This document shows positions 7,526-29,215 of a stretch of 64,000 nt of DNA, one piece after another. The notes under the pieces are model-generated. The model saw nothing but the letters and a program-made list of their open reading frames with translations, ran no database searches and was not told the DNA's origin. A program made the translations under genes and the position numbers. The stretch is from an uncultured Candidatus Melainabacteria bacterium (lineage in GTDB: Bacteria; Cyanobacteriota; Vampirovibrionia; Gastranaerophilales; Gastranaerophilaceae): the NCBI GenBank assembly GCA_947090755.1, contig CAMUPF010000008.1, positions 3,901 through 67,900 of the forward strand, in the 5' to 3' direction. Every line of letters starts with the position of its first letter. Position 1 is the first letter of the stretch.

Positions 7526-7540
7526 GCTTTATTCATAGGG

Positions 7541-7566
7541 GCGGGGTATTTATACCTCGCTTTTTT
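7541..7566 (+). terminator. intrinsic terminator
   Basis: Stem gcggggta/tacctcgc with loop ttta, followed by tttttt. Confidence 0.7.
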
Positions 7567-7689
7567 AATAAAAACTTTTTCAAAAATAGGCCATGTGGCT
7601 AATAACAAATCTTAATATTTACTTTTATGCATGATTGTTTGTGATATTCTAATAATCATACAATTAGAGTTTCAGATAAGAGGATTTCA

Positions 7690-8631: not shown

Positions 8632-9428
8632 TGAAAGTCGTAATCCTTGCAGGTGGGCTGGGAACCCGATTAAGTGAAGAAACAAAACTTGTGCCGAAAC
8701 CAATGGTTGAAATCGGCGGAAAGCCTATTTTATGGCACATAATGAAGATTTATTCTCATTACGGGTTTAACGAATTTATTATTTTAACGGGTTATAAATC
8801 TCACGTTATAAAAGATTATTTCGTCCATTACTACCAGCAATATTCTGATATAACTGTTGATATGCTGAATAATTCCGTTGAAATTCATCGTATAAAAACA
8901 GAACCTTGGAAAGTTACAATGCTCTATACCGGCCAAAATACCATGACCGGCGGACGTATAAAAAAAGCGCAGGAATATATCGGAAACGAACCATTCCTTT
9001 TGACTTACGGTGACGGGGTTTCAGATGTTAACATTGATGAATTGATTAGAAATCACAAAGCGTCAGGCAAAATCGCTACGATGACAGCGGTTCAACCGTC
9101 CGGCCGTTTCGGCGCGCTTGTTATCAAAGACGACAATATGATTACATCGTTTATGGAAAAACCAAAAGGCGATGAATCCTGGATTAACGGCGGCTTCTTT
9201 GTTTGTGAGCCTGAAGTATTTGACTATATTCCAAAAGGTGATGATGTAATTTTCGAACGCGCACCGCTGGAAAATCTTGCGAAAGACCACAAGTTAAACG
9301 CCTACAAGCACGATGGTTTCTGGCGTCCGATGGATACGCTTAAGGACAAAAACGATTTGACAGAAATGTGGGAAAGTTCCAACGCCCCTTGGGCTGTATG
9401 GCAAAATCGCGAGGTGGCTAATGTTTAA
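8631..9428 (+). CDS. rfbF: glucose-1-phosphate cytidylyltransferase
   Basis: MKVVILAGGLGTRLSEETKLVPKPMVEIGGKPILWHIMKIYSHYG is the characteristic RfbF/DdhA N-terminus. 265 aa. Confidence 0.9.
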   Translation: MKVVILAGGLGTRLSEETKLVPKPMVEIGGKPILWHIMKIYSHYGFNEFIILTGYKSHVIKDYFVHYYQQYSDITVDMLNNSVEIHRIKTEPWKVTMLYTGQNTMTGGRIKKAQEYIGNEPFLLTYGDGVSDVNIDELIRNHKASGKIATMTAVQPSGRFGALVIKDDNMITSFMEKPKGDESWINGGFFVCEPEVFDYIPKGDDVIFERAPLENLAKDHKLNAYKHDGFWRPMDTLKDKNDLTEMWESSNAPWAVWQNREVANV

Positions 9429-10503
9429 TAACATTTATGCCGGAAAACGTGTATTTTTAACCGGCCATACCGGATTTAAAGGAAGCTGGCTTGCACTCTG
9501 GCTTACAAAACTCGGCGCTGATGTTTGCGGATATTCACTTGCTCCAAACACCGAGCCTTCAATGTTTAAAGAATTGGGTATTGCGGATAAGATTTCTAAA
9601 TCCGTAATCGGAGATATACTTGATGATGCATCCATAGAAAAAGCGATGCAGGATTTTCAACCTGAAATCGTTTTCCACCTTGCTGCGCAGCCGCTCGTAA
9701 GACTTTCATACTCCGAACCTGTTTTGACTTATAAGACCAATGTTATAGGAACATTAAATGTCCTTGAAGCGGCCAGAAAATGTTCTTCTGTAAAAGCATT
9801 TGTAAATATTACGACCGATAAATGCTACGAAAACAAAGAAATTAACCGTGGTTATCGCGAAGATGAACCTATGGGAGGGCATGATATGTATTCATCATCA
9901 AAAGGATGTGTCGAAATTATGTCATCATCTTTCAGACGTTCATTCTTGCAAGAAGGTTATGCAATGGCAACTGCGCGTGCCGGGAATGTTATTGGCGGCG
10001 GAGACTGGGCTTTGGACAGATTAATTCCGGACTGTGTTAAATATATCAACGCAGGTCAAAAAATTGAAATCCGTAACCCTGTTGCCGTTCGTCCGTGGCA
10101 GCATGTTCTGGAACCGTTGTCAGGCTACTTGCTTTTAGGACAAAAACTTCTTGAACATGGTATTCATTTTGCGGATGGTTTCAATTTTGGCCCTAATGAA
10201 GACAGTGTTTTAAAAGTTGCAGAAGTTGCCCAAAAAGTTACTGAATTTTACGGCCGCGGAGAAGTCGTTGTGCATAAGCGCGATGATTTGCACGAAGCAA
10301 ATTTGTTAATGCTTAATATCGAAAAAGCAGAAAAAGTTCTTGGCTGGACGCCAACTTATACCGCTAATCAGGCTATAGAAAAAACTGTTGAATGGTACAG
10401 ACACTTCTATGCGCATGATACGGGTATGTATAACTTTACAATTAATCAAATCGAAAATTATGAGGAAAGCATAAAATGGAACAAGAATTACGCAACAAAG
10501 TAA
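9421..10503 (+). CDS. rfbG: CDP-glucose 4,6-dehydratase
   Basis: GHTGFKGSWLALWL Rossmann motif, YSSSK catalytic motif, 360 aa, overlaps rfbF. Confidence 0.9.
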   Translation: MFNNIYAGKRVFLTGHTGFKGSWLALWLTKLGADVCGYSLAPNTEPSMFKELGIADKISKSVIGDILDDASIEKAMQDFQPEIVFHLAAQPLVRLSYSEPVLTYKTNVIGTLNVLEAARKCSSVKAFVNITTDKCYENKEINRGYREDEPMGGHDMYSSSKGCVEIMSSSFRRSFLQEGYAMATARAGNVIGGGDWALDRLIPDCVKYINAGQKIEIRNPVAVRPWQHVLEPLSGYLLLGQKLLEHGIHFADGFNFGPNEDSVLKVAEVAQKVTEFYGRGEVVVHKRDDLHEANLLMLNIEKAEKVLGWTPTYTANQAIEKTVEWYRHFYAHDTGMYNFTINQIENYEESIKWNKNYATK

Positions 10504-11819
10504 AAGAGGCTGCAAAGGAATATTATTCGGCAGTTTATGGCAAAAAGAGAGAGTTTGACTACATCCCGCCAAGCGGTAAACTTTTAGGCGAAGAAGAGTT
10601 GATGAATATGATTGACGCTTCTTTGGATATGTGGCTTACGGCCGGAAGATTCAATAAAGAGTTTGAAACAAAGTTTGCGAAATATCTTGGTGTAAAATTT
10701 GCGCTTTCAACAAACTCCGGTTCAAGTGCGAATCTTCTTGCTTTTTCCGCACTTACTTCTCACAAACTCGGCGAACGTGCATTGAAGAAAGGCGACGAAG
10801 TTATCTCTGTTGCTGCAGGGTTCCCGACTACAATAAACCCGATTCTTCAACACGGCATGGTTCCGGTTTTCGTTGACTGTGAAGTCGGAACTTACAATAT
10901 CGACGCAGATAAAATTGAAGAGGCTATAACGCCGAAAACAAAAGCGATTTTCCTCGCTCATACGCTTGGAAACAGCTATGATTTAGACAAAATCATGGCG
11001 CTGGCAGAAAAATATAATTTATGGGTTATTGAAGACAGCTGTGACGCTCTGGGCGGTGAATACAAAGGCCGTAAAATCGGTACCATCGGACATATCGGAA
11101 CATTTAGTTTCTATCCTGCACACCACCTGACAATGGGTGAAGGCGGGGCGGTTATTACAAATGACCCTCAATTATACAAAATTATAATGTCATTCCGTGA
11201 TTGGGGCCGTGATTGCTGCTGTCCTCCGGGCCGTGACGGTGTTTGCGGAAAACGTTTCTCACAACAGTTGGGTAACCTTCCTTACGGTTATGACCACAAA
11301 TACACTTATTCTCACATTGGTTTTAACCTTAAAATTACGGATTGGCAAGCGGCTCTTGGCTGTTCACAAATTGATAAACTCGACAGTTTCTTAGAAATTC
11401 GTCGTCGTAACGCAGCACTTTTGACAGAAAAACTGGCGGATTTAAAAGATTACCTGATTCTGCCTGAGGTTAGAGAAGGTGTAAAACCATCTTGGTTCGG
11501 CTATTTGATTTCTGTTAAAGAAAACGCTCCGTTCACAAAACAAGAAATGGTTGAATACATTGAAAAGAAAGGTATCGGAACGCGTCAATTATTTGCGGGC
11601 AATATCCTCAGACAGCCGATGATTGTAGATAATGATGTTAATTTCAGAATTGGAAATTCCGGTTTGATAAATTCAAAAGATTTGACCGAAGAACATTATA
11701 AATTATTACCGAAAACAGATTTTATAATGAATAATACGTTCTGGGTGGGAACATTCCCTGCGCTTGGAGAAGACGAAATTTCAAGAATCTCAGACGCAAT
11801 TCATGCGTGTGTAAAATAA
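10476..11819 (+). CDS. rfbH: CDP-6-deoxy-D-xylo-4-hexulose 3-dehydrase (E1), DegT/RfbH family
   Basis: 447 aa. FRDWGRDCCCPPGRDGVCGKRF..YGYDHKYTYSHIGFNLKITD matches the RfbH-type cysteine-rich region. Sits after rfbF-rfbG. Confidence 0.8.
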   Translation: MEQELRNKVKEAAKEYYSAVYGKKREFDYIPPSGKLLGEEELMNMIDASLDMWLTAGRFNKEFETKFAKYLGVKFALSTNSGSSANLLAFSALTSHKLGERALKKGDEVISVAAGFPTTINPILQHGMVPVFVDCEVGTYNIDADKIEEAITPKTKAIFLAHTLGNSYDLDKIMALAEKYNLWVIEDSCDALGGEYKGRKIGTIGHIGTFSFYPAHHLTMGEGGAVITNDPQLYKIIMSFRDWGRDCCCPPGRDGVCGKRFSQQLGNLPYGYDHKYTYSHIGFNLKITDWQAALGCSQIDKLDSFLEIRRRNAALLTEKLADLKDYLILPEVREGVKPSWFGYLISVKENAPFTKQEMVEYIEKKGIGTRQLFAGNILRQPMIVDNDVNFRIGNSGLINSKDLTEEHYKLLPKTDFIMNNTFWVGTFPALGEDEISRISDAIHACVK

Positions 11820-11839
11820 AAGGCAGGAGCTATAGCCTG

Positions 11840-12979
11840 ATGAGCGTTGCAAAAGGTCAAAATTGCAGTATTAATTTTTTGAGATTTCTTTTTACATTCG
11901 GGATTTGCTTTATGCATCTTGTTTGTCAGGTGATTTCTCCCTATATTGCATATCCGTTGAACTATGGTAATTTTGCGGCACCTTCTTATGCTGTTGAATT
12001 ATTCTTCATAATGGCCGGTTTTTTCTTGTTTTTCAATAAAAAGCCGCTGGAGGAATACATTTCAAACCGTATAATAAGATTGTGGCCGTTGCTGGTGTTT
12101 TCAACTATTATTGCAGGGATTTTGAGAGCTTTGCATATATCAGGTATGTCATTGAAGTTTGATGATATTCTTAACTGCCTGTTTTTACAGGGAACAGGTC
12201 TGATGCAAGGCGGGGCGACTAATGGACCGGCGTGGTTCGTGGGTGTTTTGTTCTGGGTTTCTGTAATATATTATTATTGCAAAAGAGTACTTGGCAAGAA
12301 ATCATTTATTGCATTAATGATTGTTATGGCGGGTATTGGTTTGATAGTATTCGGAACCACAGGCAAGGCAAATCCGTTTGAAGGAGTCAGAGGATTCATT
12401 CTTCCCGCATGGGGGGGGGGGGGGATCTCTATGATGATGTTACGCGGTTTTACGGCTATAGGCATCGGATGTATTCTGGGAAAATTTCAGGAAATTTTTG
12501 CCGGAAGTCATGCTGCGCAGACCCTGCAAAGTGTTTCGGGCTCAAAGAAGCTTTTCACGGCTTTAGAAGTGATATTTTTCGTCGGACTGTGCGCAGTCTT
12601 ACTGGGAGGCAGCCTGATGAATATATATAGTTCTTATTTATTGGCTATGGGCTTATTTTTAATCGTGTTTTTCTTGTTTTTTAATAATTTAGGATATTTT
12701 TCCTCAAAAGTTCTAAACAGAAAAGTGTTTAATCTTCTCGGAGCTTATTCATACGCCATTTATATAATGCAGAATGTAGTATTTTATATTGTAGATTATT
12801 GTTTGAAAACTTACGAAAATCTAATTCCACATACAAATCTGGTTATAACAATTTCGATGATTTTATTTATTGTAATAGGAATTATTTCTTATTATCTGGT
12901 AAATTTCATCGTAGAAAAAACGGTACAGTTATACAATTTTATTCAAAGAGATAATATTTTAAAGGAGACAACTTTATGA
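11840..12979 (+). CDS. membrane acyltransferase family 3 (putative O-acetyltransferase), contains in-frame G14 tract
   Basis: Multi-TM ORF. The N-terminal FLRFLFTFGICFMH motif is typical of acyltransferase_3. ORF open from 11807, ATG 11840 follows AGGAG. The tract encodes WGGGG. Confidence 0.7.
   Translation: MSVAKGQNCSINFLRFLFTFGICFMHLVCQVISPYIAYPLNYGNFAAPSYAVELFFIMAGFFLFFNKKPLEEYISNRIIRLWPLLVFSTIIAGILRALHISGMSLKFDDILNCLFLQGTGLMQGGATNGPAWFVGVLFWVSVIYYYCKRVLGKKSFIALMIVMAGIGLIVFGTTGKANPFEGVRGFILPAWGGGGISMMMLRGFTAIGIGCILGKFQEIFAGSHAAQTLQSVSGSKKLFTALEVIFFVGLCAVLLGGSLMNIYSSYLLAMGLFLIVFFLFFNNLGYFSSKVLNRKVFNLLGAYSYAIYIMQNVVFYIVDYCLKTYENLIPHTNLVITISMILFIVIGIISYYLVNFIVEKTVQLYNFIQRDNILKETTL
12411..12424 (+). 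repeat. homopolymeric G14 tract (in frame, ON)
   Basis: Counted directly: 12411-12420 plus 12421-12424. Confidence 0.95.
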
Positions 12980-13794
12980 ATTCATTAGAAAAGAAAATGG
13001 TAGACACTCTCGTAGATTTGAAAGAAAATCATCACGTAGTCGGCATCAAAGCAGAATTTGAGGCTGAAGGTACAAGACTTGAAGAAGCTTTGAGATTAAA
13101 AGAAGTTGTAACAAAAGCCGGTCTTGAATTAACTATTAAAATCGGCGGATGTGAAGCTATTAAAGATATGTATGATGCAAGAACAATCGGCGTAAGCACA
13201 ATCGTTGCACCTATGATTGAAACACCTTACGCAATGAAAAAATATGTTCAGGCTACAAAATTTGTATTCCCTGAAGAAGAAAGAAAAGATGTTAAATTTT
13301 TAATTAATATCGAAACAATCACAGGTTATGCAAACCTTAAAGAAATGATTGCGTCCCCATATTTTGCTGAAATTGGCGGTATCGTTCTCGGCCGTGTTGA
13401 CATGACAGGTTCAATGGGCTTGACAAGAGAGGATATTAACTCTAAACAAATTTTTGATATTGCAAATACACTTTCTCAAGAAATGTTAAAAGTCAATAAA
13501 GATATGGTAATCGGCGGTGGTGTTTCTGCACAATCACTTCCGTTCTTTAAAGATTTGCCTGCTAACGCTTTATCAAGATTTGAAACAAGAAAAATCATCT
13601 TCGATGCGCAAAAAGCATTAAAAGACCCTAATGCTGACAAAGGTATTTTGAAAGCTGTTGGCTTTGAATTGATGTGGTTGAAAAACAAACGTGAATTCTA
13701 CGGAATGATATTCCAAGAAGACGCCGCACGTTTGACAATGCTTGAAGCAAGATACAAAAAGTTAATCGAAGAAGCAGGTGGCGTGTATGCGTAA
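12976..13794 (+). CDS. HpcH/HpaI aldolase / citrate-lyase-beta-like TIM-barrel protein
   Basis: IVAPMIETPYAMKKYV, FLINIETITGYANL and IVLGRVDMTGSMG resemble the three conserved strands of HpaI-type pyruvate aldolases. Assignment by motif resemblance only. Confidence 0.5.
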   Translation: MNSLEKKMVDTLVDLKENHHVVGIKAEFEAEGTRLEEALRLKEVVTKAGLELTIKIGGCEAIKDMYDARTIGVSTIVAPMIETPYAMKKYVQATKFVFPEEERKDVKFLINIETITGYANLKEMIASPYFAEIGGIVLGRVDMTGSMGLTREDINSKQIFDIANTLSQEMLKVNKDMVIGGGVSAQSLPFFKDLPANALSRFETRKIIFDAQKALKDPNADKGILKAVGFELMWLKNKREFYGMIFQEDAARLTMLEARYKKLIEEAGGVYA

Positions 13795-14446
13795 GGCTTT
13801 AGTGACAGGTGCCTCCCGCGGTATCGGAAAAGCCATAAAGAATTTATTTGAGGAAAGGGGCATAGTGGTTTATGCCCCTGCCCGCTCTGAAATGAATCTT
13901 TCTTCTAACGAAAGTATCAAGGCGTATGTTGAAAAGATTCCTGATGTGGATATTCTGGTTAATTGTGCAGGTATAAATGATTTAGGCTCTATTGAAGAAA
14001 TGACCGAAGAAAAGTTGCAGGAAATGATTCAGGTGAATCTTATTTCACAAACTATGCTTATCAAATATGTTTCTGAAAAGATGAAGGCTAATCGTTACGG
14101 AAGAATCGTTAATTTTGCGTCTATCTGGTGTGATTTTTCAAAAGAGCGCAGAATTATGTATTCAATAGCAAAAGCAGGAGTAAAAGGTCTGACAACAGCG
14201 GCGGCTGTTGAGCTTTCAAAATACAATGTCCTTGTTAACGCAGTAGCTCCGGGGTTTGTAAATACTGAAATGACTTCGCAAAATAACACCCCTGAACAAA
14301 TTGAGGCGCTTGCGCAGGCACTCCCTATTAAACGTATGGCAGAACCTGTCGAAATCGCTGAATTCGTTTATTTCCTTTCAAGTGAACAAAATTCTTTTAT
14401 TACCGGTCAAACAATTTTTGCAGACGGAGGTTTTTCATGTGTTTAG
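13787..14446 (+). CDS. short-chain dehydrogenase/reductase (FabG-like)
   Basis: TGASRGIGKAI cofactor motif, YSIAK catalytic motif. ATG overlaps the upstream stop (ATGCGTAA). Confidence 0.8.
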   Translation: MRKALVTGASRGIGKAIKNLFEERGIVVYAPARSEMNLSSNESIKAYVEKIPDVDILVNCAGINDLGSIEEMTEEKLQEMIQVNLISQTMLIKYVSEKMKANRYGRIVNFASIWCDFSKERRIMYSIAKAGVKGLTTAAAVELSKYNVLVNAVAPGFVNTEMTSQNNTPEQIEALAQALPIKRMAEPVEIAEFVYFLSSEQNSFITGQTIFADGGFSCV

Positions 14447-15516
14447 ATAAATTGACGGTTAAGTCTAATATAAAAAATTACGATGTGTTTTTTGAAAATG
14501 ACGCATCATTTCTGAAATCACTTTCTGAAAAAGAAAATAGCGTTTATGTCGTTGATGAAAATGTGTACGAAGCGCATAAAACAGGTTGTCTTTCAACTTT
14601 ACCGCAGGAAAGATTAATAATCCTTCCAATCGGCGAAGAAATGAAAAATATTGATTCTGTTTGCAGTTTGTATGAAAAAATCATGCGATTTGCACCTCGT
14701 AAAAACCTGAATCTAATTTCCATTGGGGGCGGTATTACTCAGGATGTAACGGGTTTTGTTGCATCGTCTTTGTATCGCGGTGTAAACTGGATTTTTGTTC
14801 CGACGACTTTACTTGCGCAGGTTGACAGTTGTATCGGCGCTAAGACTTCATTAAATTTCAACCATTACAAGAATCTAATAGGAACGTTTTATCCGCCATC
14901 AGAAATCCATATTTATCCTGAATTTTTGAAAACTTTAACAAAAGCGGATTTTTATTCAGGTGTTGGCGAAATGGCTAAATTACATTTGATGAACGGTGAA
15001 TCTGATACAAAAGTTTTTGTGGATTCTCTGGAAGCTATAGATAGACTTGAGCCGCAAACTTTATTGGAACGCACGCAAAACTGTCTTAAAATCAAAAAAT
15101 CATACATTGAGGATGATGAATTTGATACAGGCAAAAGAAATATGTTGAATTACGGTCATTGTTTTGGTCATGCGATTGAAAGTTCAACAGACTTTGCGAT
15201 TTCTCATGGTCAGGCGGTTGTTGTCGGTATGATTCTGGCAAACAAAGAGGCCTTAAGACGTGGAATTTTAAGCGCGGAAAACGAAAAGTATATCCGTGAA
15301 AATGTTTTAGAACCTGTATTAAAGGTGCAAGTTCCGGATGTAGATGCAGCAAAAACCGTTGCCGCAATGGGACAGGATAAGAAAAATCTTGGTAAAGGTT
15401 TAGCCCTTGTCATGATTCAAGATGGCTATGAAATGGTGAAAATCACTGATATGACTACACAAGAAGCTGGAGAAATATTGAAAGAATGTCAAAAATTAAA
15501 TTATCAGACTATATAG
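14437..15516 (+). CDS. 3-dehydroquinate synthase-like sugar-phosphate cyclase superfamily protein
   Basis: GGGITQDVTGFVASSLYRGVNWIFVPTTLLAQVDSCIGAKTSLNF parallels the AroB core, with HCFGHAIE metal-site histidines. Confidence 0.7.
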   Translation: MCLDKLTVKSNIKNYDVFFENDASFLKSLSEKENSVYVVDENVYEAHKTGCLSTLPQERLIILPIGEEMKNIDSVCSLYEKIMRFAPRKNLNLISIGGGITQDVTGFVASSLYRGVNWIFVPTTLLAQVDSCIGAKTSLNFNHYKNLIGTFYPPSEIHIYPEFLKTLTKADFYSGVGEMAKLHLMNGESDTKVFVDSLEAIDRLEPQTLLERTQNCLKIKKSYIEDDEFDTGKRNMLNYGHCFGHAIESSTDFAISHGQAVVVGMILANKEALRRGILSAENEKYIRENVLEPVLKVQVPDVDAAKTVAAMGQDKKNLGKGLALVMIQDGYEMVKITDMTTQEAGEILKECQKLNYQTI

Positions 15517-17261
15517 CAAAAAGATTGAAAGAATGTTATAATGTAGAACACTTTTTTATGGTTTCCGGAGGCGGTGCAATGCACTTAAACGACAGCCTTG
15601 GAAAATACATCCCCTATACCGCAAACCATCACGAACAGGCTTGCGCTATTGCGGCGGAGGGTTATGCAAGGGTTAATCAGAAACTCGGCGTTGTAAATGT
15701 TACAACCGGCCCCGGAGGTTTGAACTGTCTAAACGGTGTTTTTGGCCAGTGGACAGATAGTGTACCTGTTTTGTATATTTCCGGTCAGGTAAAATTTACC
15801 ACAACAATGGCCTCTTGTCCGGAAGTTCCTCTGCGTCAGCTTGGTGATCAGGAGGTTGATATTATTTCCTGCGTCAAACCGCTTGTGAAGTATGCTAAAA
15901 TGGTAACTGAACCTAATGAAATAAAATACCACCTTGACAGAGCGATTTATGAAGCTACAACCGGTCGTATGGGACCTGTTTGGCTGGATATTCCGATGAA
16001 TGTTCAAGGCGCAATGATAGATGAAGATGAATTAAAAGGATTTACTCCGCCATCTGCTAAAGTGTATGATTTGAAAATTGCGCAGGTCGTTGAAAAATTA
16101 AAATCCGCAAAACGTCCGTTAATCGTTGCGGGTTACGGTTTAAGACTGGCTAAACAGGAAGAAAATTTCTTAAAACTTCTTGAAAACACTGATATTCCTG
16201 TGGTTACAACGTTTAACGGAATGGATTTACTCTCGTCAGACCATAAAAACTTCTGCGGTCGAATCGGTACAGTCGGTCAACGTGCGGGTAACTTTACGCT
16301 TCAAAACGCGGACGTGATTTTGTCCCTCGGAACCCGTAACAATATTCGTCAGGCTAGTTACAACTGGGAAAATTTTGCTAAAAATGCTTATAAAATGGTT
16401 GTCGATATTGACAGCGCTGAACTTGATAAACCGACAGTGGTTCCGGACTTGAAAGTTAACGCGGATTTGAAAGAATTTTTGCCTGCTCTTATAAAAGAAT
16501 TCCCGACGCTTGATGTTAAAGAATGGGCAAGTTTTTCTAAAAATTTACAGGCAAAATATACTTTTGAAAAAACAGAGCAATATCAGTCTAAAGACGGTGT
16601 TATCAATGTCTATGATTTTGTTCATACATTGAGTGAAGTTATGAGTGAAGGTGACATTGTTGTTGCCGGAAACGGCTCTGCCTGTGTTTGTACACATCAG
16701 GCGGCACATGTTAAGCCTGAACAGCGAATTTTCTGGAATTCAGGTGATGCATCAATGGGTTATGACCTGCCTGCGGCGCTTGGGGCCTGTTATGAAGCAA
16801 ATGGCAGAAATGTAATCTGTTTGACCGGCGACGGCTCAATAATGATGAATATTCAGGAACTTCAAACCGTTGCGTTTAATAAGTTACCGCTGAAAATTTT
16901 TGTTATTAATAATGCCGGTTATTCCTCAATAAGACAAACTCAAAGGAATTTCTTCAGCGGTCGTATGACGGGTTCAGGCGATGACAGCGGTGTGAGCGTT
17001 CCGGATTTTTGCAAACTCGCAGAAGGCTTTGGTCTTAATTCGGTAAGAGTTTCTAATCCTGTGACAATGAAAGAGGATTTGGCTGCGGTATTGAAAATGG
17101 ACGGCCCTGTGGTTTGTGAAGTAATGGTAGAAAAAGAATATGCGTTCTCTCCTAAATTATCTGCACGAAAACTGGACGACGGAACAATGGTTTCTCCTAG
17201 TTTGGAAGATATGTTCCCGTTCCTTGACAGGGAGGAATATGAAAGGAATTTGTTAAAATGA
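15486..17261 (+). CDS. thiamine-diphosphate-dependent enzyme, acetolactate-synthase-like (YerE-like candidate)
   Basis: 591 aa. The TPP-binding motif GDGSIMMNIQELQT..NN and the N-terminal HEQACAIAAEGYAR are typical of the ALS/YerE family. Confidence 0.8.
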   Translation: MSKIKLSDYIAKRLKECYNVEHFFMVSGGGAMHLNDSLGKYIPYTANHHEQACAIAAEGYARVNQKLGVVNVTTGPGGLNCLNGVFGQWTDSVPVLYISGQVKFTTTMASCPEVPLRQLGDQEVDIISCVKPLVKYAKMVTEPNEIKYHLDRAIYEATTGRMGPVWLDIPMNVQGAMIDEDELKGFTPPSAKVYDLKIAQVVEKLKSAKRPLIVAGYGLRLAKQEENFLKLLENTDIPVVTTFNGMDLLSSDHKNFCGRIGTVGQRAGNFTLQNADVILSLGTRNNIRQASYNWENFAKNAYKMVVDIDSAELDKPTVVPDLKVNADLKEFLPALIKEFPTLDVKEWASFSKNLQAKYTFEKTEQYQSKDGVINVYDFVHTLSEVMSEGDIVVAGNGSACVCTHQAAHVKPEQRIFWNSGDASMGYDLPAALGACYEANGRNVICLTGDGSIMMNIQELQTVAFNKLPLKIFVINNAGYSSIRQTQRNFFSGRMTGSGDDSGVSVPDFCKLAEGFGLNSVRVSNPVTMKEDLAAVLKMDGPVVCEVMVEKEYAFSPKLSARKLDDGTMVSPSLEDMFPFLDREEYERNLLK

Positions 17262-17971
17262 AAAGCATAATTTATGCAATGGTTCCTGCAAGAGTCGGAA
17301 GCACACGTTTAAAATTAAAGAATATTCGTTTGCTTCACGAGAAACCGTTAATCTGGTATGGGGTAAACGCCGCGCAAACCGCCGGATTTTTCGATAAAGT
17401 TTTTATAAATTCCGATGAAGGTCTGTGGGGTAAACTCGCGCAGGACTACGGGTGTGAATTTTATCATCGTAATAGCGAATTCGCTACCTCTATTTCTACT
17501 GCTGATGATGTTATATATGACTTTTTTAAGAATAATCCCGAATGTGATTTCCTTTTCTGGATAAATACAACAAATCCTTTCCAGCCGTATGAGGATTATG
17601 CAAAAGCATTTGAGTACTTTATTGATAATAATTTAGACGGGTTGATTACGACAACAAAGGATAAAATTCATACAAGGTTTATGGGTAAGCCTCTTAACTA
17701 TAATGCAAATGATAAATTACCTAAAACTCAGGATATTGAACCGGTAGAAGTTTTTGCTTTTCCGTTTAGTATCTGGAGAAGAGAAAGTTTTATAAGAAAT
17801 TATGAAAATCACGGTTATGCTTATCTTTGCGGTAATATAGGCTACTGGGAAGTCAATAAACTTGCAGCAGTTGAAATCGATGATGAGGAAGATTTTCTTT
17901 TCGCTAATGCAATTCTTTATGGACGTGATAATCCTTTGTGTTACAAAAAAGAATATGCAAAATTGGATTAA
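17258..17971 (+). CDS. acylneuraminate/ulosonate cytidylyltransferase family protein (CTP_transf_3)
   Basis: AMVPARVGSTRLKLKNIRLLHEKPLIWY matches the NeuA/KdsB-type N-terminal motif. Confidence 0.75.
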   Translation: MKSIIYAMVPARVGSTRLKLKNIRLLHEKPLIWYGVNAAQTAGFFDKVFINSDEGLWGKLAQDYGCEFYHRNSEFATSISTADDVIYDFFKNNPECDFLFWINTTNPFQPYEDYAKAFEYFIDNNLDGLITTTKDKIHTRFMGKPLNYNANDKLPKTQDIEPVEVFAFPFSIWRRESFIRNYENHGYAYLCGNIGYWEVNKLAAVEIDDEEDFLFANAILYGRDNPLCYKKEYAKLD

Positions 17972-17973
17972 TA

Positions 17974-18695
17974 ATGAAAAGATTTCTAAGAAAAATTTTG
18001 GGTAAAAATAAAACGCAATATTATGACATTTGCGGGGATAATAATAAATTAATTATTATTGAAAATGGTGTTGAGCGTCTGGCGAACAAGGAAACTATTC
18101 TCGGTTTGTGGGTTTCGATACACGGAAATAACAATACCGTAAAGTTAGAACTTCCGATTCATTTTGAAAATTCATCTATTATAATTTCGGATTCTGATGA
18201 GGCTGACATTTTTATCCGCAAGACTCAGCATCACGTTAAAAATTTTTCGGTAAATTCACGCCTGCATAGCGGCCATAAACTATTTATTGATGAAGATTTT
18301 TATTGCAACGGGGCAACAATTTTGCTAAGAGAAGAAAACGCGTCGGTAAAAATAGGTAAAGATTGTATGTTTTCGTGGGGAATAACTATATGGACTTCTG
18401 ACGGACATTGTATTTTTGATAATACAACCGGCGAACTGTTAAATGACCCATCCGGGGGGGGGGGGGCCTCATCGGTAATCATGTATGGGTAGGCTGCAAC
18501 GTTAATTTATTGAAAAATTCGAAAATCCCTGACAATTCGGTCGTTGCGTTAGGGGCAATTATTTCTAAAAGATTTGATGAGGAAAATATTTTGCTCGTTG
18601 GCACAAATGAAGTTAAGAAAAGAAATATTCGATGGACAAGAGATTTTATAACTGATTATAAAAGGAGTAAATGTGAAAGTATTAATAGATTCTGA
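17974..18695 (+). CDS. left-handed beta-helix (hexapeptide) acetyltransferase, split by G13 tract (OFF frame)
   Basis: The upstream ORF ends 26 nt after the tract. The other frame reads LIGNHVWVGCNVNLLKNSKIPDNSVVALGAIISK, a classic hexapeptide transferase C-terminus. 14 or 11 G would fuse the two parts. Confidence 0.75.
18454..18466 (+). repeat. homopolymeric G13 tract
   Basis: Counted directly: 18454-18460 plus 18461-18466. Confidence 0.95.
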
Positions 18696-20197
18696 TTATT
18701 TTTTTATAAGGGATATGTATTATCGTTCCTGCGGCCATACACTTAATACTATTAATATTTTGAAACGTTTTTTCGGCGAAGATTTATTAAAGGATTTCAG
18801 GTGTGTTATTTCTGAAACTGTTTATTACCAGTTAAATGAAGAAGAATTATCCGGTATTAATCCTGTAGTGATTTTTGACAGGGAATTGCGGGATATTTTT
18901 GAGGATAAATTTATATCGCACAATGAAATTGTCGAAAAGTTTTATTACGGCAATTTGACCCCTAACAATCTACAGGATTTGAAGGCGCTTTATTCTCGCA
19001 AACTGGAAGGTTTTGTGCCGGATTTAGTTATGCAATTTGAATATCATAATAAATGTTATGACGATATTTTCCCTAAGGCGTTTAAATTAACCTTTCAGGG
19101 CGGACTTTTTAAAAGGGGAATTGGGCCTGAAACTTATATTATTGACCCCTCAGGCAGCTTTAAGGATTCATCTTTAAATATCTTTCGTGATGAAATTAAC
19201 AATTTCGTAATTTCTGAACAACAAAACACACTGATTGATAACTTTAAACGCCGCCTTAGTAATCTTATAAAAGAGAATACATCTTTTATTTCTACCTTAT
19301 TAGCGCCTTATAAAGAGAAGTTTGATTATCTTGTTTTGCTTCCGTTACAAATGAGTAATCATTATGGTTTTGATACTGAAACAGGATTTAAAACGCAGTA
19401 TGACTATCTTGAATATGTACTGGATAATGTTCCTAAAAATGTCGGGGTAATCGTAACAGAACACGACCATGGCCGTTTTCTTGAAGAAGGAACCTTCGGA
19501 AAAGGCGGATTCTTAGAATGGTTTGAAAACAAGTATGAAAATTTGGTATACATTAAAGAACTGCGGGGGGGGGGGGGGGTATTCCTCTCCGTCAATATAT
19601 TTCTTGCCGGAGGTTGATGCTGTGATAAATGTTTCGTCCTCAGTCGCCCTGACTGCAACTTTATTCGATAAAAGAATAATATCACTTGGTAAAACTTATA
19701 ATAATTGTTTTAAGGATACTCAGGGATTAGAAAACATTATTGAAGTTTTAAGCAAACCGGTTAGAAATAAAAATTCGTTTTTATTCTGGTTTTTGACTAA
19801 ATATGTTTTTTTCGAAAAACAGTTGAATGATAAATCTTTTATGTACCAATATTTATGTGATTCCATAGAAAAATTCAAGAATGAAGGAGTAACTTTTGCT
19901 TACTTTACGCAAATGAATGGAATCGAAGAGGCTTGTGATTCTATTGCAGGGTATATTGAAAATGTTTTCATTACAGAGCGCCGCAGGCAGGAAGATGAAA
20001 GGCTTGCGCAAGAGGCAGAAAGGCTTGCAAGGGAAAAGGAAATAGAAGAAGCAAGACTACGCGAAGAGGAGCGAAAACGGCGGATTGATAAAAAACGTGA
20101 AAGATGTAACCGGTTCGGAATCTATTACGAGGCAAAACATATTATTATCGGCCTGTTCGGGCTTAAAATAAAATTTAGAAACTATTTGGAGGAATAA
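18673..20197 (+). CDS. capsule-synthesis (KpsC/KpsS-like, PF05159-like) protein with C-terminal charged coiled coil, split by G15 tract (OFF frame)
   Basis: YLVLLPLQMSNHYGFD and VIVTEHDHG before the tract. YSSPSIYFLPEVDAVINVSSSVALTATLFDKRIISLGK after it, in the -1 frame. 14 or 17 G would fuse them. Family call by motif resemblance. Confidence 0.55.
19565..19579 (+). repeat. homopolymeric G15 tract
   Basis: Counted directly: 19565-19570 plus 19571-19579. Confidence 0.95.
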
Positions 20198-20200
20198 TTT

Positions 20201-21265
20201 ATGAATACAATTTTAAAAGAAGATTTTGATTATATTCTTGGCGATAAGAATATTGATTGGTCAGAATTAGCAGGTACGACAATTCTGGTTTCCGGAGCAT
20301 CAGGATTCTTGCCCTCATATTTGATAAAAACGCTTTTATACCTGAATTCTCTCGGTGTCCAAAAACCCGTCAAAATCCTTGCACTTGTAAGAAATATTGA
20401 CAAAGCAAAAGCTAAATTTAAAGATTCACTCAATGACAGTAATTTAGTGTTCCTTGCACAGGATGTTACAAAACCGATAGAAGTTCCTGAAAAAATTGAT
20501 TATATTATTCACGCAGCAAGTCAGGCCAGCCCTAAATTCTTTTTCTCCGATCCTGTAGGAACTATCAATGCCAATACTCTGGGTACAAGTAATTTACTGG
20601 CTCTTGCAAAAGAAAAAGAGGTTAAAAGTTTCCTATATTTTTCATCCGGCGAAGTATGCGGTGACATTTTTGAACATAAAAATCTTGTATCAGAAGATGA
20701 TTACGGGATTGTTAACCCGTTAGATGTTAGAAATTGCTATTCAGAGAGTAAAAGAATGGGCGAAAATATGTGTTTTTGCTGGAATTACCAGTATGGTGTT
20801 CCGGTAAAAATCGTAAGACCGTCGCATACTTATGGCCCCGGATTTAGTTTTGACGATGGCAGAGCGTTTACAAGTTTTGTGGCCTCTGTGGTTAAGGGCG
20901 AAGATATTGTGTTAAAAAGTGACGGCAGTGCAAAAAGGTCTTTTGTCTATCTGGCAGATGCAGTAAGAGCGTATATTTTTGTACTTTTAAACGGTCAGAA
21001 CGGTGCCGCTTACAATGTTGGCTACGATGGTGAAATAAGTATTCTGGAACTGGCAAACCTTCTTGTTTCTCTGGCTGATAACAAAAATATTAAAGTTCGT
21101 CGTGAAATTTCAGGTAATGCCCCGAGCAGTAAAGTCGCAAACGGACTCCTCGATATCAGTAAATTAAAAGCTATGGGCTGGTATCCGAATATTTCAGAAG
21201 AAAAAGGGTTTAAAAGAACTATTGACTACTTTCTTCAGGAATTAGAATTGGAGACCGTGCACTAA
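20201..21265 (+). CDS. NAD-dependent sugar epimerase/dehydratase (extended SDR)
   Basis: VSGASGFLPSYL cofactor motif and YSESK catalytic motif. 354 aa. Confidence 0.8.
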   Translation: MNTILKEDFDYILGDKNIDWSELAGTTILVSGASGFLPSYLIKTLLYLNSLGVQKPVKILALVRNIDKAKAKFKDSLNDSNLVFLAQDVTKPIEVPEKIDYIIHAASQASPKFFFSDPVGTINANTLGTSNLLALAKEKEVKSFLYFSSGEVCGDIFEHKNLVSEDDYGIVNPLDVRNCYSESKRMGENMCFCWNYQYGVPVKIVRPSHTYGPGFSFDDGRAFTSFVASVVKGEDIVLKSDGSAKRSFVYLADAVRAYIFVLLNGQNGAAYNVGYDGEISILELANLLVSLADNKNIKVRREISGNAPSSKVANGLLDISKLKAMGWYPNISEEKGFKRTIDYFLQELELETVH

Positions 21266-21270
21266 AACTA

Positions 21271-21297
21271 AAAAAGAGGCTCGATGAGCCTCTTTTT
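21271..21297. terminator. bidirectional intrinsic terminator
   Basis: aaaaagaggctc-gat-gagcctcttttt between convergent genes. Confidence 0.8.
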
Positions 21298-22481
21298 TAT
21301 AATGAATATTTTGTCTTCTTTGCAGATCTGAACTTTTTACGTAAATCGCTTAATGTTATATTATGCAAAAGTCTGCGGATGAAAAGATATGCCATATCCC
21401 GTATTCTGAGATTTTTGACGGCTGTTGAATAAATTTTATTTTTATAGTTTTTGAATATGTTTTTTGTTTTCTTATAATGATTTTGTTTCATAAGTTTAAG
21501 GATATCTTCTCTGTATTCTTTGATTCCGTAACCAAAAACTTCTTCAAGATGTTTTCTTGATTCGTCATCATTCAATAAATCATCAATATATTCTGCAGAA
21601 TGACCTACAAAACGTTGTTCCATAAACAAACCGTGTGCGATAAAGAACGGTATATCTTTTTTGTCGTTTAATTTATCAACAAAAGGGCTTTCCGGAAAAA
21701 TTTCTTTTGCGATATTGATATCTTCAAGAGTCAAAAATGTTTTATAATAAGTTTTATGCTCGTACCAGTCGTATGCCGCAACTTTATCAATAGCGCCGAT
21801 TGCGGACGCTTGTGATTCGTGAATCCTGTAATTAGCGACTAATTTATTTATGTAACCTGCCTTGTAACCTTTACAGAAAAGTGCCAGCCATAAATTGATA
21901 TCAAAGCAATAAATATAAGTTTTATTGATTTTTACAGTTTTAAGTATATCAGCTTTAATTATAGCACCTGCCCAAGGTAGAAAACCGATTCCGCGTCCTA
22001 ACAGGCCTATACAATCAGCGGGAGTATTTTCTACGGAGAAAAATTCTCTTACATCAAAGTGATTTACATTTAAATCTTTTCCCTCTGAATTAATATATTC
22101 AACGTTACCAAAGGCGAAGTCAACATCCGGAGTGCTTTCCATATAGTTAACGAGGGTTTCAAGTCCGCCCTCTCTCAGTTCGTCATCTGCAGATACGACT
22201 TTGATATATTTCCCGCAAGATTGATCGAACATTTTTTGTAATAATAAACCGCTGCCGCCGCCGATATTTTCTTCCATATCAATATGTTTGATACGCGGAT
22301 CGTTATAAGAGCGTGCTATTTCTCTACAGGAATCTTCTGTTGCATGGTTAAGTAAAAATAACTCAAAGTTTTGATATGACTGTTTTAGAACTGATTCAAT
22401 TGAACATTTCAAAAACTTTTCATCGTTATAGTATGGTATCAAAATTGAAACTAAAGGGTTTCCCGTCGGTGTGTTTTGCAT
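21297..22481 (-). CDS. family 2 glycosyltransferase (paralog A)
   Basis: VSILIPYYNDEKFLKCSIESVLKQSYQNFELFLLNHATEDSCREI. 394 aa. Collinear similarity to the 22989..24149 product, including the C-terminal K..YSL. Confidence 0.8.
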   Translation of the reverse strand: MQNTPTGNPLVSILIPYYNDEKFLKCSIESVLKQSYQNFELFLLNHATEDSCREIARSYNDPRIKHIDMEENIGGGSGLLLQKMFDQSCGKYIKVVSADDELREGGLETLVNYMESTPDVDFAFGNVEYINSEGKDLNVNHFDVREFFSVENTPADCIGLLGRGIGFLPWAGAIIKADILKTVKINKTYIYCFDINLWLALFCKGYKAGYINKLVANYRIHESQASAIGAIDKVAAYDWYEHKTYYKTFLTLEDINIAKEIFPESPFVDKLNDKKDIPFFIAHGLFMEQRFVGHSAEYIDDLLNDDESRKHLEEVFGYGIKEYREDILKLMKQNHYKKTKNIFKNYKNKIYSTAVKNLRIRDMAYLFIRRLLHNITLSDLRKKFRSAKKTKYSL

Positions 22482-22611: not shown

Positions 22612-22953
22612 ATGGATAAGGCAGAAGTAAAAAAGAATGTGGGGCAAAAGGTTCGTACATATAGGTTGAATTTAAAGTTATCCCAGTTCGCACTTGGTGA
22701 AAAAGCGGATATTAATCAAAGACAAATCGCCCAAATAGAATCCGGAAAATCTTTGCCTTCTCTTAACACTTTGCTTAAATTCTGTGAAATTTTTCACTGT
22801 GAAATCGGTGAATTTTTTGAACAAAATATCGTCAAAACCAGAGAAGAACTTAAGCAGGAGATTATTAACATTATTGATGACTTTAACTTTGGCCAATTAG
22901 AGTTTATATATTTGTATATCCGCAATTTTTCTATGGTTAGGTCAAAAAAATAA
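22612..22953 (+). CDS. XRE-family helix-turn-helix transcriptional regulator
   Basis: VGQKVRTYRLNLKLSQFALGEKADINQRQIAQIESGKSLPSLNTLLKFCEIF is a Cro/C1-type HTH. Confidence 0.8.
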   Translation: MDKAEVKKNVGQKVRTYRLNLKLSQFALGEKADINQRQIAQIESGKSLPSLNTLLKFCEIFHCEIGEFFEQNIVKTREELKQEIINIIDDFNFGQLEFIYLYIRNFSMVRSKK

Positions 22954-22988
22954 ATAGGCCTAGGCATTTAATAGAAAGGAATTTGATT

Positions 22989-24149
22989 ATGAATAGTCCG
23001 TTAGTATCACTATTTATACCGTATTATAATGATAAAACTTTTTTAAGGGTTTCTATAGAGTCTGTATTGTCACAAACTTATAAAAACTGGGAGTTGATTT
23101 TGGTAAACCATGCATCAACTGATTCAAGTCGTGAGATAGCTCATTCATATAATGACAGTAGAATTAAACATGTTGACGTTAGCTGTAATTTAGGGGTTGG
23201 CGGTGGCGGGCTGCTAATGACAAAATTTCTGGAACAGGCTAAGGGCAAATATGTTAAATTTTTATGCGCTGATGATATGTTGCTTGATGATGGATTATCA
23301 ATTCTCGTTGATTATATGGAAAGTCATCCTGATATAGATTTTGCATTTGGCAATTTGAATTATATTAATGAAAACGGCAGGTCTCTGGGGAAAGATTTTT
23401 TCTCGAATAGAGAATATTTTTCTGTTGATAATACTGAAGCTGACTGTATACGTCTTTATTCTAAAGGATATAGTTTTTTACCGTATATTGGCAGTATTGC
23501 GAAACGCCAAATTTTCAATAATATAACAATAAACAAAACGATTATTATGACATTTGATATGTCTTTATGGCTTTCGCTGCTGTGTAAGGGATATAAAATC
23601 GGTTATATTGAACAACTTATCGGAAATTATAGAATTCATAAAGAACAGGCCTCTGCAATACAAAAAAGAAGACAGGCTGAAATGTTAAGTTCGCATGAAT
23701 GGGGAATATTTTGGAAGATTTTTCTTACTATTGAAAGCGTAGATTTGGCAAAAGAGGTATGGCCCGAGAGCGATTTAGCAGAGAAACTTACCCGTAAAGA
23801 AGATATCCCTTTTTTTGTAGCATATATGCTATTTGATTTCTGGATAATTTCGCAGGAAATATATGCTTATATCGCCTCCTTACTTGATGACGATTGCAAG
23901 CGTCAATACTTAATCGAAACATTCGGTTTTGGTGTCAGAGAGTTGAGGAAAGCCTGTCTGAATAAGTTACAAACTAATAATTCAGCGAAAATGAATTCCT
24001 TGAAAAAATATAAAACTAAACTTTATATGAAAGGCGTTAAGGATTTAAATTTACTGGATATGATTTATCTTGCGTTTAGAAAATTTATCAACTTAATTAC
24101 TTTGCGCCCTTTATTTAAACTGTTCAAAAAGAAAAACTATTCGTTATAG
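22989..24149 (+). CDS. family 2 glycosyltransferase (paralog B)
   Basis: VSLFIPYYNDKTFLRVSIESVLSQTYKNWELILVNHASTDSSREI. ATG 22989 after AAAGGA; the tracked ORF starts at TTG 22983. Confidence 0.8.
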   Translation: MNSPLVSLFIPYYNDKTFLRVSIESVLSQTYKNWELILVNHASTDSSREIAHSYNDSRIKHVDVSCNLGVGGGGLLMTKFLEQAKGKYVKFLCADDMLLDDGLSILVDYMESHPDIDFAFGNLNYINENGRSLGKDFFSNREYFSVDNTEADCIRLYSKGYSFLPYIGSIAKRQIFNNITINKTIIMTFDMSLWLSLLCKGYKIGYIEQLIGNYRIHKEQASAIQKRRQAEMLSSHEWGIFWKIFLTIESVDLAKEVWPESDLAEKLTRKEDIPFFVAYMLFDFWIISQEIYAYIASLLDDDCKRQYLIETFGFGVRELRKACLNKLQTNNSAKMNSLKKYKTKLYMKGVKDLNLLDMIYLAFRKFINLITLRPLFKLFKKKNYSL

Positions 24150-24686
24150 AATAAAGTTCATATAGCTTTCGTCGATTTTATCCTGTTCTATTCCGATGTA
24201 TCTTAGAGTTATTGAGGTTGAGGAATGGTTCAGGATTTTTTGTAGAAGCGCGATATCGTTAAACCGGATATAATGGTGATAACCAAACGTTTTTCTTAGC
24301 GAATGGGTACCAACTTTATATTTTATTCCCACTGTTGTGCAAGCCTTATTAATAATCCTGTATGCCTGATGCCTGTCGAGCCGGTTGTTATAAACCGTAG
24401 TAAACAGCGGCTCTTTGTCTTTTTTGCCTTCGATATGACGAATTATTAGTTGTTGTAATTTTTGATTTATCGGGAATCTTTTGTGTTTATGAGTTTTCTT
24501 TTCTGTTATACAAATATGGGTTTTGCCGCGAACATCCCCGACGTTGAGGCCCAGAATATCGGATATTCTGAGTCCGCTGTTTGTTCCCATAACGAAAAAC
24601 AGTAAATCTCTTAAACTTTGCTTTTCAAGAGTGTGTTCAATGCGTTTCAAATCATCTTTGTTTCTAATCGGTTCTACAATGTTCAT
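24144..24686 (-). CDS. small tyrosine recombinase (catalytic domain only, 180 aa)
   Basis: GLRISD (Arg), HSLRKT (His-x-x-Arg), NHSS and LRYIG (Tyr) catalytic residues. No N-terminal SAM-like or arm-binding domain. Confidence 0.8.
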   Translation of the reverse strand: MNIVEPIRNKDDLKRIEHTLEKQSLRDLLFFVMGTNSGLRISDILGLNVGDVRGKTHICITEKKTHKHKRFPINQKLQQLIIRHIEGKKDKEPLFTTVYNNRLDRHQAYRIINKACTTVGIKYKVGTHSLRKTFGYHHYIRFNDIALLQKILNHSSTSITLRYIGIEQDKIDESYMNFIL

Positions 24687-24750
24687 AGTGCCCGCCTTTC
24701 TATGTAAAATTTCTAAATGAGTGCTTTTTTACATAGATAAAAACGAAACT

Positions 24751-24778
24751 AAAAAAGACTCCTTTAGGAGTCTTTTTT
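24751..24778. terminator. bidirectional intrinsic terminator
   Basis: aaaaaagactcc-ttt-aggagtctttttt. Confidence 0.75.
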
Positions 24779-24854
24779 AGTTTGGGTTCGCGCTCGAACC
24801 AATGACAAAGCTCCGCTTTGTTGTGGTTCGTAAAATGCAACGCATACTCATGAT

Positions 24855-24888
24855 AAAAATGGAAATAACAAAAGTTATTTCCATTTTT
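24855..24888 (-). terminator. intrinsic terminator after tRNA-Tyr
   Basis: aaaaatggaaataac-aaaa-gttatttccattttt, a 15-bp stem, immediately 3-prime of the tRNA on the minus strand. Confidence 0.75.
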
Positions 24889-24891
24889 ATT

Positions 24892-24974
24892 TGGGCAGGG
24901 GTGGATTCGAACCACCGTAGGCTCGCACCGACAGATTTACAGTCTGTTCCCTTTAGCCACTCGGGCACCTACCC
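24892..24974 (-). tRNA. tRNA-Tyr (anticodon GTA), class II long variable arm
   Basis: Manual cloverleaf: acceptor GGGTAGG/CCTGCCC, anticodon arm ACAGA-CTGTAAA-TCTGT, T arm GGTGG-TTCGAAT-CCACC. CCA not encoded. Confidence 0.85.
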
Positions 24975-25172
24975 ATATTAAATTTTAGTTTCTTTCCTGC
25001 TCTCTAATGTGTTCCGCCAGTGTCCGTAACCTGCCTAGTGCTCTTTTTCGGCTAATTACTTGTTTTATTTCCTGATGCTATTCATATTCCTTATGGTTGC
25101 GGACCGGCCACACACATTTTTGAGTTTTTATATCAGATTGGTATCTCTGATTAAGTTCGAGATAACGCAATA

Positions 25173-25244
25173 TGCCCTTGACGAGATTTGAACTCGTGGC
25201 CTCTCCCTTACCAAGGGAGTGCGCTACCCCTGCGCCACAAGGGC
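25173..25244 (-). tRNA. tRNA-Thr (anticodon GGT)
   Basis: Acceptor GCCCTTG/CAAGGGC, D arm GCGC-AGGGGTA-GCGC, anticodon arm CTCCC-TTGGTAA-GGGAG, T arm ACGAG-TTCAAAT-CTCGT. Confidence 0.85.
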
Positions 25245-25419
25245 TTGCCTTCTGGTTTGCCGCACTTTGTAATTCTGAAGGGAACCAAGGGAGTGCTGCT
25301 ACCCTCCTCCACTCAAACGATATTCTAATCGTTTTCGCGGAGTCCTTGCCACAAGGGCTCTTTTGGACGCCTCTAGCGTTACGAGCCAACCCGTAAACCC
25401 TTTCCGGCACCCGAGAAAT

Positions 25420-25491
25420 AGCCGGCAATAGGAATCGAACCTACAACCTACGGTTTACAAAACCGTTGCTCTACCGTTGAGCTATGCCGGC
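25420..25491 (-). tRNA. tRNA-Thr (anticodon TGT)
   Basis: Acceptor GCCGGCA/TGCCGGC, anticodon arm ACGGT-TTTGTAA-ACCGT, T arm GTAGG-TTCGATT-CCTAT. Confidence 0.85.

Positions 25492-27270: not shown

Positions 27271-29215
<1,945 letters not shown>

Follow-up and report, generated by a model that had tools for sequence, protein, structure and literature searches.

The window, that is, the whole stretch of 64,000 nucleotides analysed here, has a GC content of 39% and contains a tightly packed operon of 14 mostly overlapping genes at positions 7124-21265. The twelfth gene of this operon encodes an acetyltransferase and is divided between two reading frames by a poly-G tract (Table 1). The other genes of the operon encode a GT2 glycosyltransferase, the enzymes RfbF, RfbG, and RfbH of the CDP-3,6-dideoxyhexose pathway (all above the NCBIfam cut-offs), an Acyl_transf_3 membrane acyltransferase, an HpcH-type aldolase, an SDR, an AroB-related enzyme (TIGR04425, 393.5 bits against a cut-off of 400), an acetolactate-synthase-like ThDP enzyme, a cytidylyltransferase, a 507-aa protein, and an epimerase/dehydratase. 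Judged by this gene content, the locus is a surface-polysaccharide locus. The cytidylyltransferase gene stops 2 nt ahead of the acetyltransferase ATG, and this adjacency suggests a CMP-activated acidic sugar as the candidate acceptor. A sialic-acid (NeuB-type) synthase was not recognised among the annotated operon genes.

Table 1. Coordinates of the acetyltransferase gene, its poly-G tract, and related features in the window
Feature	Position	Strand	Remark
G12 run before pilin-like gene 1807-2763	2890-2901	-	Leader out of frame; G11 or G14 would fuse
Sigma-70-type promoter, TTGACA-16-TATAAT, 12/12, with TG	7066-7093	+	Consensus match only; operon head
Third poly-G tract, G14	12411-12424	+	Inside Acyl_transf_3 gene 11807-12979, same operon
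Cytidylyltransferase, CMP-sugar-synthetase type (CTP_transf_3, PseF/KdsB-like)	17258-17971	+	Upstream gene
Whole acetyltransferase gene, NeuO/OatWY-like left-handed beta-helix O-acetyltransferase	17974-18695	+	Frameshifted at G13; ON = 240 aa (G14)
5' ORF as assembled, OFF product of 172 aa	17974-18492	+	Holds Met132 and catalytic His145
Poly-G tract G13, putative hypermutable switch	18454-18466	+	ON state encodes Gly161-165
3' gene part, +2 frame, LIGNHVW...INRF*, 75 aa	18468-18695	+	Trp172, Trp221, Arg223, last beta-helix coils
Downstream gene, 507 aa in frame, split by second tract	18673-20197	+	GTG start
Second poly-G tract, G15, OFF	19565-19579	+	In frame at G14 or G17
Terminator-like hairpin, 14-bp palindromic stem	21269-21299	-	Consensus match only
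G11 run before pilin-like gene 29459-30415	29427-29437		Leader out of frame; G12 or G9 would fuse

The hairpin is located between the last operon gene, which stops at 21265, and a convergent gene (21297-22481) whose 3' end faces it. Its stem is palindromic and begins with an A run, and it could thus terminate both transcripts. The region from 8631 to 17971 is an unusual mix, with RfbF/G/H, the ThDP enzyme, the HpcH aldolase, the SDR, TIGR04425, and a second cytidylyltransferase, and this combination points to a sugar that is branched or uncommon in some other way. Beyond the operon there are more GT2 genes, and the glycan locus is flanked at 22612-25491 by an HTH gene, three tRNA genes (tRNA-Tyr/Thr/Thr), and an integrase fragment, the latter being the C-terminal part of a tyrosine recombinase (24144-24686, minus strand, 180 aa). 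The GC content of the glycan locus (0.34-0.38) is below that of the adjoining regions (0.40-0.43), so the locus may be a genomic island. An Rfam scan returned tRNAs only.

Elsewhere the window carries the flagellar genes FliN and FlhA. The FlhA-like ORF (55773-57251, minus strand) covers model positions 323-672 of 678, and the N-terminal membrane domain is absent. GroEL (27271-28938) is 90% identical to a Gastranaerophilaceae protein. It also has a 98% match at NCBI labelled 'Fusobacterium sp.' (P0035) and an 89% match labelled 'Heliobacteriaceae', both of which are probably mislabelled Melainabacteria MAGs. A Fusobacterium origin, to which the 98% match would point, was rejected on the grounds of the 39% GC, the flagellar genes, the synteny with a Gastranaerophilales MAG described below, and the 90% identity of GroEL to the Gastranaerophilaceae protein.

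The tract in the acetyltransferase gene is a run of exactly 13 G. The upstream frame starts at the ATG at 17974, with an alternative GTG start at 17938, and its product ends in ...PSGGGGASSVIMYG* at a stop codon (18490-18492) that lies 26 nt past the tract. The second frame is open from just behind the tract to a stop at 18693-18695 and reads LIGNHVWVGCNVNLLKNSKIPDNSVVALGAIISK... (LIGNHVWVGCN...). A preliminary description of this DNA had claimed that a G13 tract splits a single gene and that the upstream part ends 26 nt beyond it, and the sequence agrees with both statements. It had further claimed that 14 or 11 G would restore one protein of about 240 aa. When tract lengths of 9 to 16 were translated in silico, a long product was indeed obtained at G11 (239 aa) and G14 (240 aa) only, and lengths of 9, 10, 12, 13, 15, and 16 gave products of 166-173 aa. 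The glycine stretch of the ON protein follows the His145 loop and precedes the IGNHVW coil.

Runs of this length are exceptional in the window. The numbers of G/C runs with lengths of 1 to 6 are 15975, 3526, 538, 115, 6, and 1, respectively. There are none of length 7-10, followed by one each of 11, 12, 13, 14, and 15. The expected number of G/C runs of at least 11 per window is 0.0025 under an independent model with the base composition of the window, and 7e-5 when the empirical decay is extrapolated. The G13 tract of the acetyltransferase gene is therefore far beyond chance. GGG is the least used glycine codon in the window genes, with 10% of Gly codons, so four consecutive GGG codons are unexplained by coding needs. 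All five runs of at least 11 are associated with surface glycan or pilin-like genes. A scan for promoters and terminators near the G13 tract gave nothing above chance.

Hexapeptide-repeat acyltransferases are built from imperfect [LIV]-[GAED]-X2-[STAV]-X repeats that form a beta-helix. Those that use acetyl-CoA have a histidine on a protruding loop and a conserved tryptophan from the adjacent subunit. The fused protein has these features of a left-handed beta-helix acyltransferase, namely hexapeptide repeats, a loop histidine (His145), and the tryptophan (Trp172). It has 21 relatives in a large protein database. The nearest complete homologues, P0001/P0155 (233 aa, 74%) and P0003/P0156 (241 aa, 60%), are both without the G tract. 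They are single polypeptides and are collinear with the fused protein across the junction, a segment with the family consensus LNxPxxVxIGNHVW; a non-collinear alignment with such homologues had been named beforehand as an outcome that would speak against one split gene.

The Pfam Hexapep model matches residues 167-197 (E 1.3e-4) with 22 bits, below its 27-bit cut-off. Together with the NCBIfam models for maltose/galactoside O-acetyltransferase, which also score below their curated cut-offs, the matches extend across the junction (residues 95-212). The family assignment hence rests on profile and fold matches to PDB entries. The family profile matches OatWY of N. meningitidis (2wlc) with an E-value of 1.6e-45 over profile positions 29-223 of 234, which is near full length, and NeuO of E. 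coli K1 (3jqy) with 1e-39. Maltose acetyltransferase, the next family, follows at 7e-20. A total of 69 PDB chains were found at E<=0.001; the 60 listed all have a hexapeptide-repeat beta-helix and are for the most part acyltransferases. The AlphaFold2 model of the fused protein (pLDDT 76, pTM 0.71) consists of short-strand coils. In Foldseek, NeuO and OatWY are its top matches with TM values of 0.69/0.76 and an E-value of 1e-9, the next beta-helix enzymes have E-values above 1e-5, and the matches as a whole are beta-helix proteins, comprising acyltransferases and related enzymes. A tblastn search of phage genomes found neuO of CUS-3 with 34% identity over residues 113-236, a segment that spans the junction.

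The similarity to NeuO and OatWY is full-length, includes the N-terminal helix extension, and is closer than that to other beta-helix enzymes. These matches bear out the earlier identification as a hexapeptide acetyltransferase. The broader designation of a sugar O- or N-acetyltransferase stands with respect to the C-terminal beta-helix, and is narrowed here to a NeuO/OatWY-like O-acetyltransferase, that family being the one whose substrates are polymers of sialic acid.

NeuO and OatWY share six conserved active-site residues (NeuO/OatWY numbering): His147/121, Trp171/145, Met134/108, Arg174/148, Trp220/195, and Arg222/197 (PMC3046976). In the HMMER alignment, five of the six are kept in the fused protein. 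Met132 and the catalytic His145 (in SDGH) correspond to Met134/108 and His147/121 and are encoded before the tract. The remaining three, Trp172 (in NHVW, for Trp171/145), Trp221 (for Trp220/195), and Arg223 (for Arg222/197), are encoded after it. The sixth position, Arg174/148, is likewise behind the tract and is Cys175 here; the arginine is lost, and this position varies among close homologues. The His145 and Trp172 columns are invariant or nearly so in the homologue alignment. By this alignment, the G13 tract falls between the catalytic His145 and its partner Trp172. The 172-aa OFF product should be inactive because three active-site residues and the coils of the acetyl-CoA tunnel are missing from it.

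Length variation was found among public assemblies of the same strain. An identical upstream gene is present on ten public contigs. Nine of them show 0 substitutions against the window over 2.8-8.3 kb (one in L021), and the tenth (L016) has 4 mismatches in 12.7 kb. The remaining differences from the window are gaps at G tracts. At the acetyltransferase tract, G13 is present in the window and in SRR13440548 and SRR13440551 (L019/L026, L023). G14 is present in ERZ13657772, SRR13440541, and SRR13440555, where the called 240-aa protein (P0145, on L016-L018) is identical to the in-silico fusion. SRR13440552 also has G14, with the contig ending 6 nt past the tract and no full-length call. Four further contigs end in or just past the tract, and some of the contig ends carry a spurious 'cccc'. 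These breaks are only suggestive of length heterogeneity within a population.

The OFF state that had been claimed for this sample stands insofar as the frame is broken as assembled. The state is that of the assembly consensus, which is a single G away from ON and may be a homopolymer consensus error. The genome might truly be G14 and the gene intact here. In line with such an error, G14 is the modal length in the other assemblies of the strain and in the sister allele described below, short-read contigs end in the tract or with the spurious 'cccc', coverage is about 4-10x in the two contigs that give it in their names, and an Illumina consensus at G13/G14 can be one off. Against it, three independent assemblies of the strain agree on G13, and the lengths in the sister allele run from 11 to 21 and include both OFF frames, G13 and G15 each being represented by 8-9 contigs. 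This range is too wide for an error of ±1, which weakens the explanation. A miscalled G13 in this window is thus a less favoured account that nevertheless keeps some weight, and the locus remains a hypermutable switch even if the call is wrong.

The sister allele shares about 82-85% nucleotide and about 89% protein identity with the window gene and has its tract at the same codon. In its 90% cluster, the ON lengths are G14 (85 + 1 contigs) and G11 (1 contig, a fragment). OFF lengths occur in frame A, with G13 (9 contigs) and G19 (1 contig), and in frame B, with G12 (2 contigs), G15 (8 contigs), and G21 (1 contig). Lengths 13, 14, 15, and 19 were confirmed in DNA, and 11, 12, and 21 were derived from called proteins. 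No mismatches over 2.4-5.7 kb were found in 15 of 18 sister-allele assemblies. The modal length across public assemblies is therefore an ON length, and OFF lengths are found in both frames. About 89 of 111 contigs (~80%) are ON and about 22 are OFF, a figure that is descriptive only, since the contigs come from few cohorts and are not independent. An in-frame share far above the neutral one-third nonetheless argues that the intact enzyme is under selection. One sister-allele protein (P0154, on an 11951-bp contig) reads SGGGGALIGNH, which corresponds to G13 plus an extra C and restores the frame without a 14th G; the C was either inserted in compensation or introduced by the assembly.

A decaying pseudogene, in which a fixed frameshift has inactivated a dispensable gene that has no switching role, would also be broken as assembled, and a few related contigs (P0147-P0149) have extra N-terminal disruptions. 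This reading is very improbable given that about 80% of the related contigs have an intact 240-aa frame, that near-identical assemblies without substitutions show no visible decay, that the active-site residues are conserved, and that a lineage diverged by 15-18% has kept its tract at the corresponding codon.

Long homopolymers, mostly A/T runs, are sites of RNA polymerase slippage. Slippage, or +1/-2 ribosomal frameshifting, could yield full-length enzyme from a G13 gene, in which case the OFF state would be leaky or absent. The data are compatible with a minor fraction of corrected mRNA, and the slippage of polymerase on long runs counts for this idea. No stimulatory structure or recoding signal is present near the tract. 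In addition, the length varies in the DNA and ON lengths predominate, which points to selection on the DNA frame. Expression that is independent of the frame would predict no in-frame bias, and the bias in the DNA would be left unexplained by slippage. Correction at the level of expression is thus improbable as the general account of the tract.

Among genomes, the nearest match comes from a Candidatus Gastranaerophilales MAG that shares synteny across 6 kb with 72% nucleotide identity; the other matches are Gastranaerophilales/Vampirovibrio MAGs and a few others. The host is probably a gut bacterium of the Gastranaerophilales (Melainabacteria). At the tract site, the syntenic ortholog reads CCG CAA AAC GGT GTT GAA (PQNGVE) without a repeat. 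The tract is, by this comparison, an insertion specific to its lineage and lengthens this part of the protein by up to three residues.

The downstream gene overlaps the end of the acetyltransferase gene by 23 nt and is preceded by the Shine-Dalgarno sequence AAAGGAG. Its own tract has 12, 13, 14, or 15 G across other assemblies. The lengths of this second tract and of the acetyltransferase tract co-occur in several different combinations, and by these combinations the two tracts vary independently. The 507-aa protein has a full-length single-polypeptide homologue (P0157) with 69% identity and LLGCGGYSS at the tract site. Its homologues are few and without a Pfam domain. No family was assigned by NCBIfam or Pfam, where hits at E<=10 were noise, and sequence and profile searches of the PDB gave no match. 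A single-sequence AlphaFold2 model (pLDDT 44) was unusable. A KpsS/KpsC-like CMP-sugar transferase, considered as a candidate identity for this protein, was unsupported by Pfam, NCBIfam, and the PDB.

The third tract of the operon is in frame as assembled. At G14 the Acyl_transf_3 gene encodes 390 aa, and at the other lengths examined, G12, G13, G15, and G16, its product shrinks to 208-274 aa. Contigs of the same strain (L018, L020, L021) start or break in this tract. Outside the operon, the two pilin-like genes are paralogous 318-aa ORFs whose first residue is the Met within GFTMAEILLSLTIIG, an N-terminal motif of the prepilin type. Each has a leader peptide encoded by an upstream ATG together with the G12 or G11 run. 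From this arrangement, the pair look like two more phase-variable surface-protein genes.

Related genomes contain further runs. The sister lineage has an extra G12 (L001, 2754-2765) near the 3' end of the AroB-like gene, which encodes 387 aa there versus 359 aa in the window, and this gene is followed by an extra HAD-family gene that is absent from the window. A mouse-gut 'Vampirovibrio sp.' MAG has an in-frame C12 run encoding PPPP (L010, 10968-10979) in a 295-aa ORF that adjoins an acetyltransferase homologue. Long G/C runs may be widespread in the glycan loci of gut Melainabacteria, as these examples suggest.

The tract, the frames, the homology, the positions of the active-site residues, and the length polymorphism among otherwise identical assemblies support, with a probability of roughly 85%, a simple-sequence contingency switch, that is, slipped-strand translational phase variation of a NeuO/OatWY-like O-acetyltransferase in a surface-polysaccharide operon. 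As in contingency loci, a long repeat lies within the reading frame and changes of its unit number toggle between a full-length and a truncated product, and repeat number is polymorphic among near-identical genomes with 0 substitutions over kilobases.

In the contingency switch, a tract of 14 G (or 11 or 17) would let the ribosome read through and give a trimeric beta-helix enzyme of 240 aa at G14. The ON enzyme would presumably move acetyl from acetyl-CoA onto a sugar of the surface glycan. The acceptor would probably be the CMP-activated acidic sugar made by the neighbouring cytidylyltransferase. With 12, 13, 15, 19, or 21 G, translation would stop 8-17 codons past the tract. The truncated product would keep the catalytic histidine and be left without the partner tryptophan, the Trp/Arg pocket, and the acetyl-CoA-binding coils, and acetylation would be lost. 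The gain or loss of one G at replication would toggle the state, presumably reversibly within a population. Together with the tracts in two more operon genes and the two pilin-like genes, this would make the cells of a single clone differ in their surface type. The selection behind it may come from phage, host immunity, or antibody. The stop at 18492 would also uncouple translation from the overlapping GTG at 18673, and could lower the expression of the next gene.

A further reading is tentative and rather unlikely. In it, the in-frame lengths G11, G14, and G17, which encode 4, 5, and 6 glycines, act as a rheostat of activity or acceptor choice, and the tract is part of a Campylobacter-style multi-locus poly-G 'phasome' in gut Melainabacteria. 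Members of the latter would be glycan acetylation, acylation, the 507-aa protein, and the two pilin-like genes. A rheostat is conceivable because the tract separates the loop of the catalytic His145 from Trp172. The heptad domain of NeuO, whose activity depends on its length, can be likened to it. A literature search found no paper describing a multi-locus poly-G 'phasome' in gut Melainabacteria.

Gut Melainabacteria (Gastranaerophilales) are uncultured, and to our knowledge nothing is known about their surface variation. A literature search for phase variation or homopolymers in Melainabacteria/Gastranaerophilales found nothing relevant. According to this search, the host lineage is new for repeat-mediated phase variation. 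The placement of the repeat within the catalytic domain of a NeuO/OatWY-type enzyme and the evidence for both OFF frames in public assemblies are also new. The slipped-strand mechanism and the type of target are already known from NeuO and from the glycan loci of Campylobacter/Helicobacter. The mechanism is textbook, so the gain is one of taxonomic breadth and no new principle. In practical terms, tract lengths in public metagenome reads would be a marker for ON/OFF dynamics across hosts and time, and MAG annotation will mistake poly-G-switched genes for pseudogenes or split ORFs.

Among known systems, OatWY, the capsule sialic-acid O-acetyltransferase of N. meningitidis W-135/Y, is the best sequence-profile match to the enzyme described here. 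The equivalents of its Met108, His121, Trp145, Trp195, and Arg197 are conserved. OatWY has no Gly-run insertion in its loop 134-137, whereas the present enzyme has one. We know of no homopolymer control of OatWY.

NeuO, which acts on the E. coli K1 capsule and is encoded by prophage CUS-3, has the same fold and belongs to the same sub-family. Its substrate is a surface polysaccharide, and an intragenic repeat switches its translation ON/OFF (PMC3046976). The gene described here is likewise a surface-polysaccharide modifier, by homology, with an intragenic ON/OFF repeat. The NeuO repeat is a 5' heptanucleotide VNTR that encodes a disordered N-terminal RLKTQDS domain, and differs from the mononucleotide G run found here, which lies centrally in the catalytic domain, after the histidine and before the tryptophan. 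Arg174 of NeuO corresponds to a cysteine in the present enzyme. Another difference is the location, since NeuO is borne on a prophage, and the present gene belongs to a chromosomal operon; an integrase fragment and tRNA genes follow about 5.5 kb downstream of it. The switching of the same enzyme family by a different repeat in E. coli K1 suggests convergent phase-variable O-acetylation of glycans.

In Campylobacter jejuni and Helicobacter, poly-G/C contingency genes are located in capsule, LOS, and flagellin-glycosylation loci (PMC8355987, PMC2823697). Both those species and the present organism are AT-rich gut bacteria with several G/C runs in surface-glycan genes, about 8-15 long in the former, and each tract is ON or OFF regardless of the others, so that surface types arise by combination. 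The phylum of the present organism (probably Melainabacteria) is distinct from Campylobacterota, and its tracts are longer (11-21). The locus indicates that gut Melainabacteria share the poly-G strategy of Campylobacter, Helicobacter, and Neisseria.
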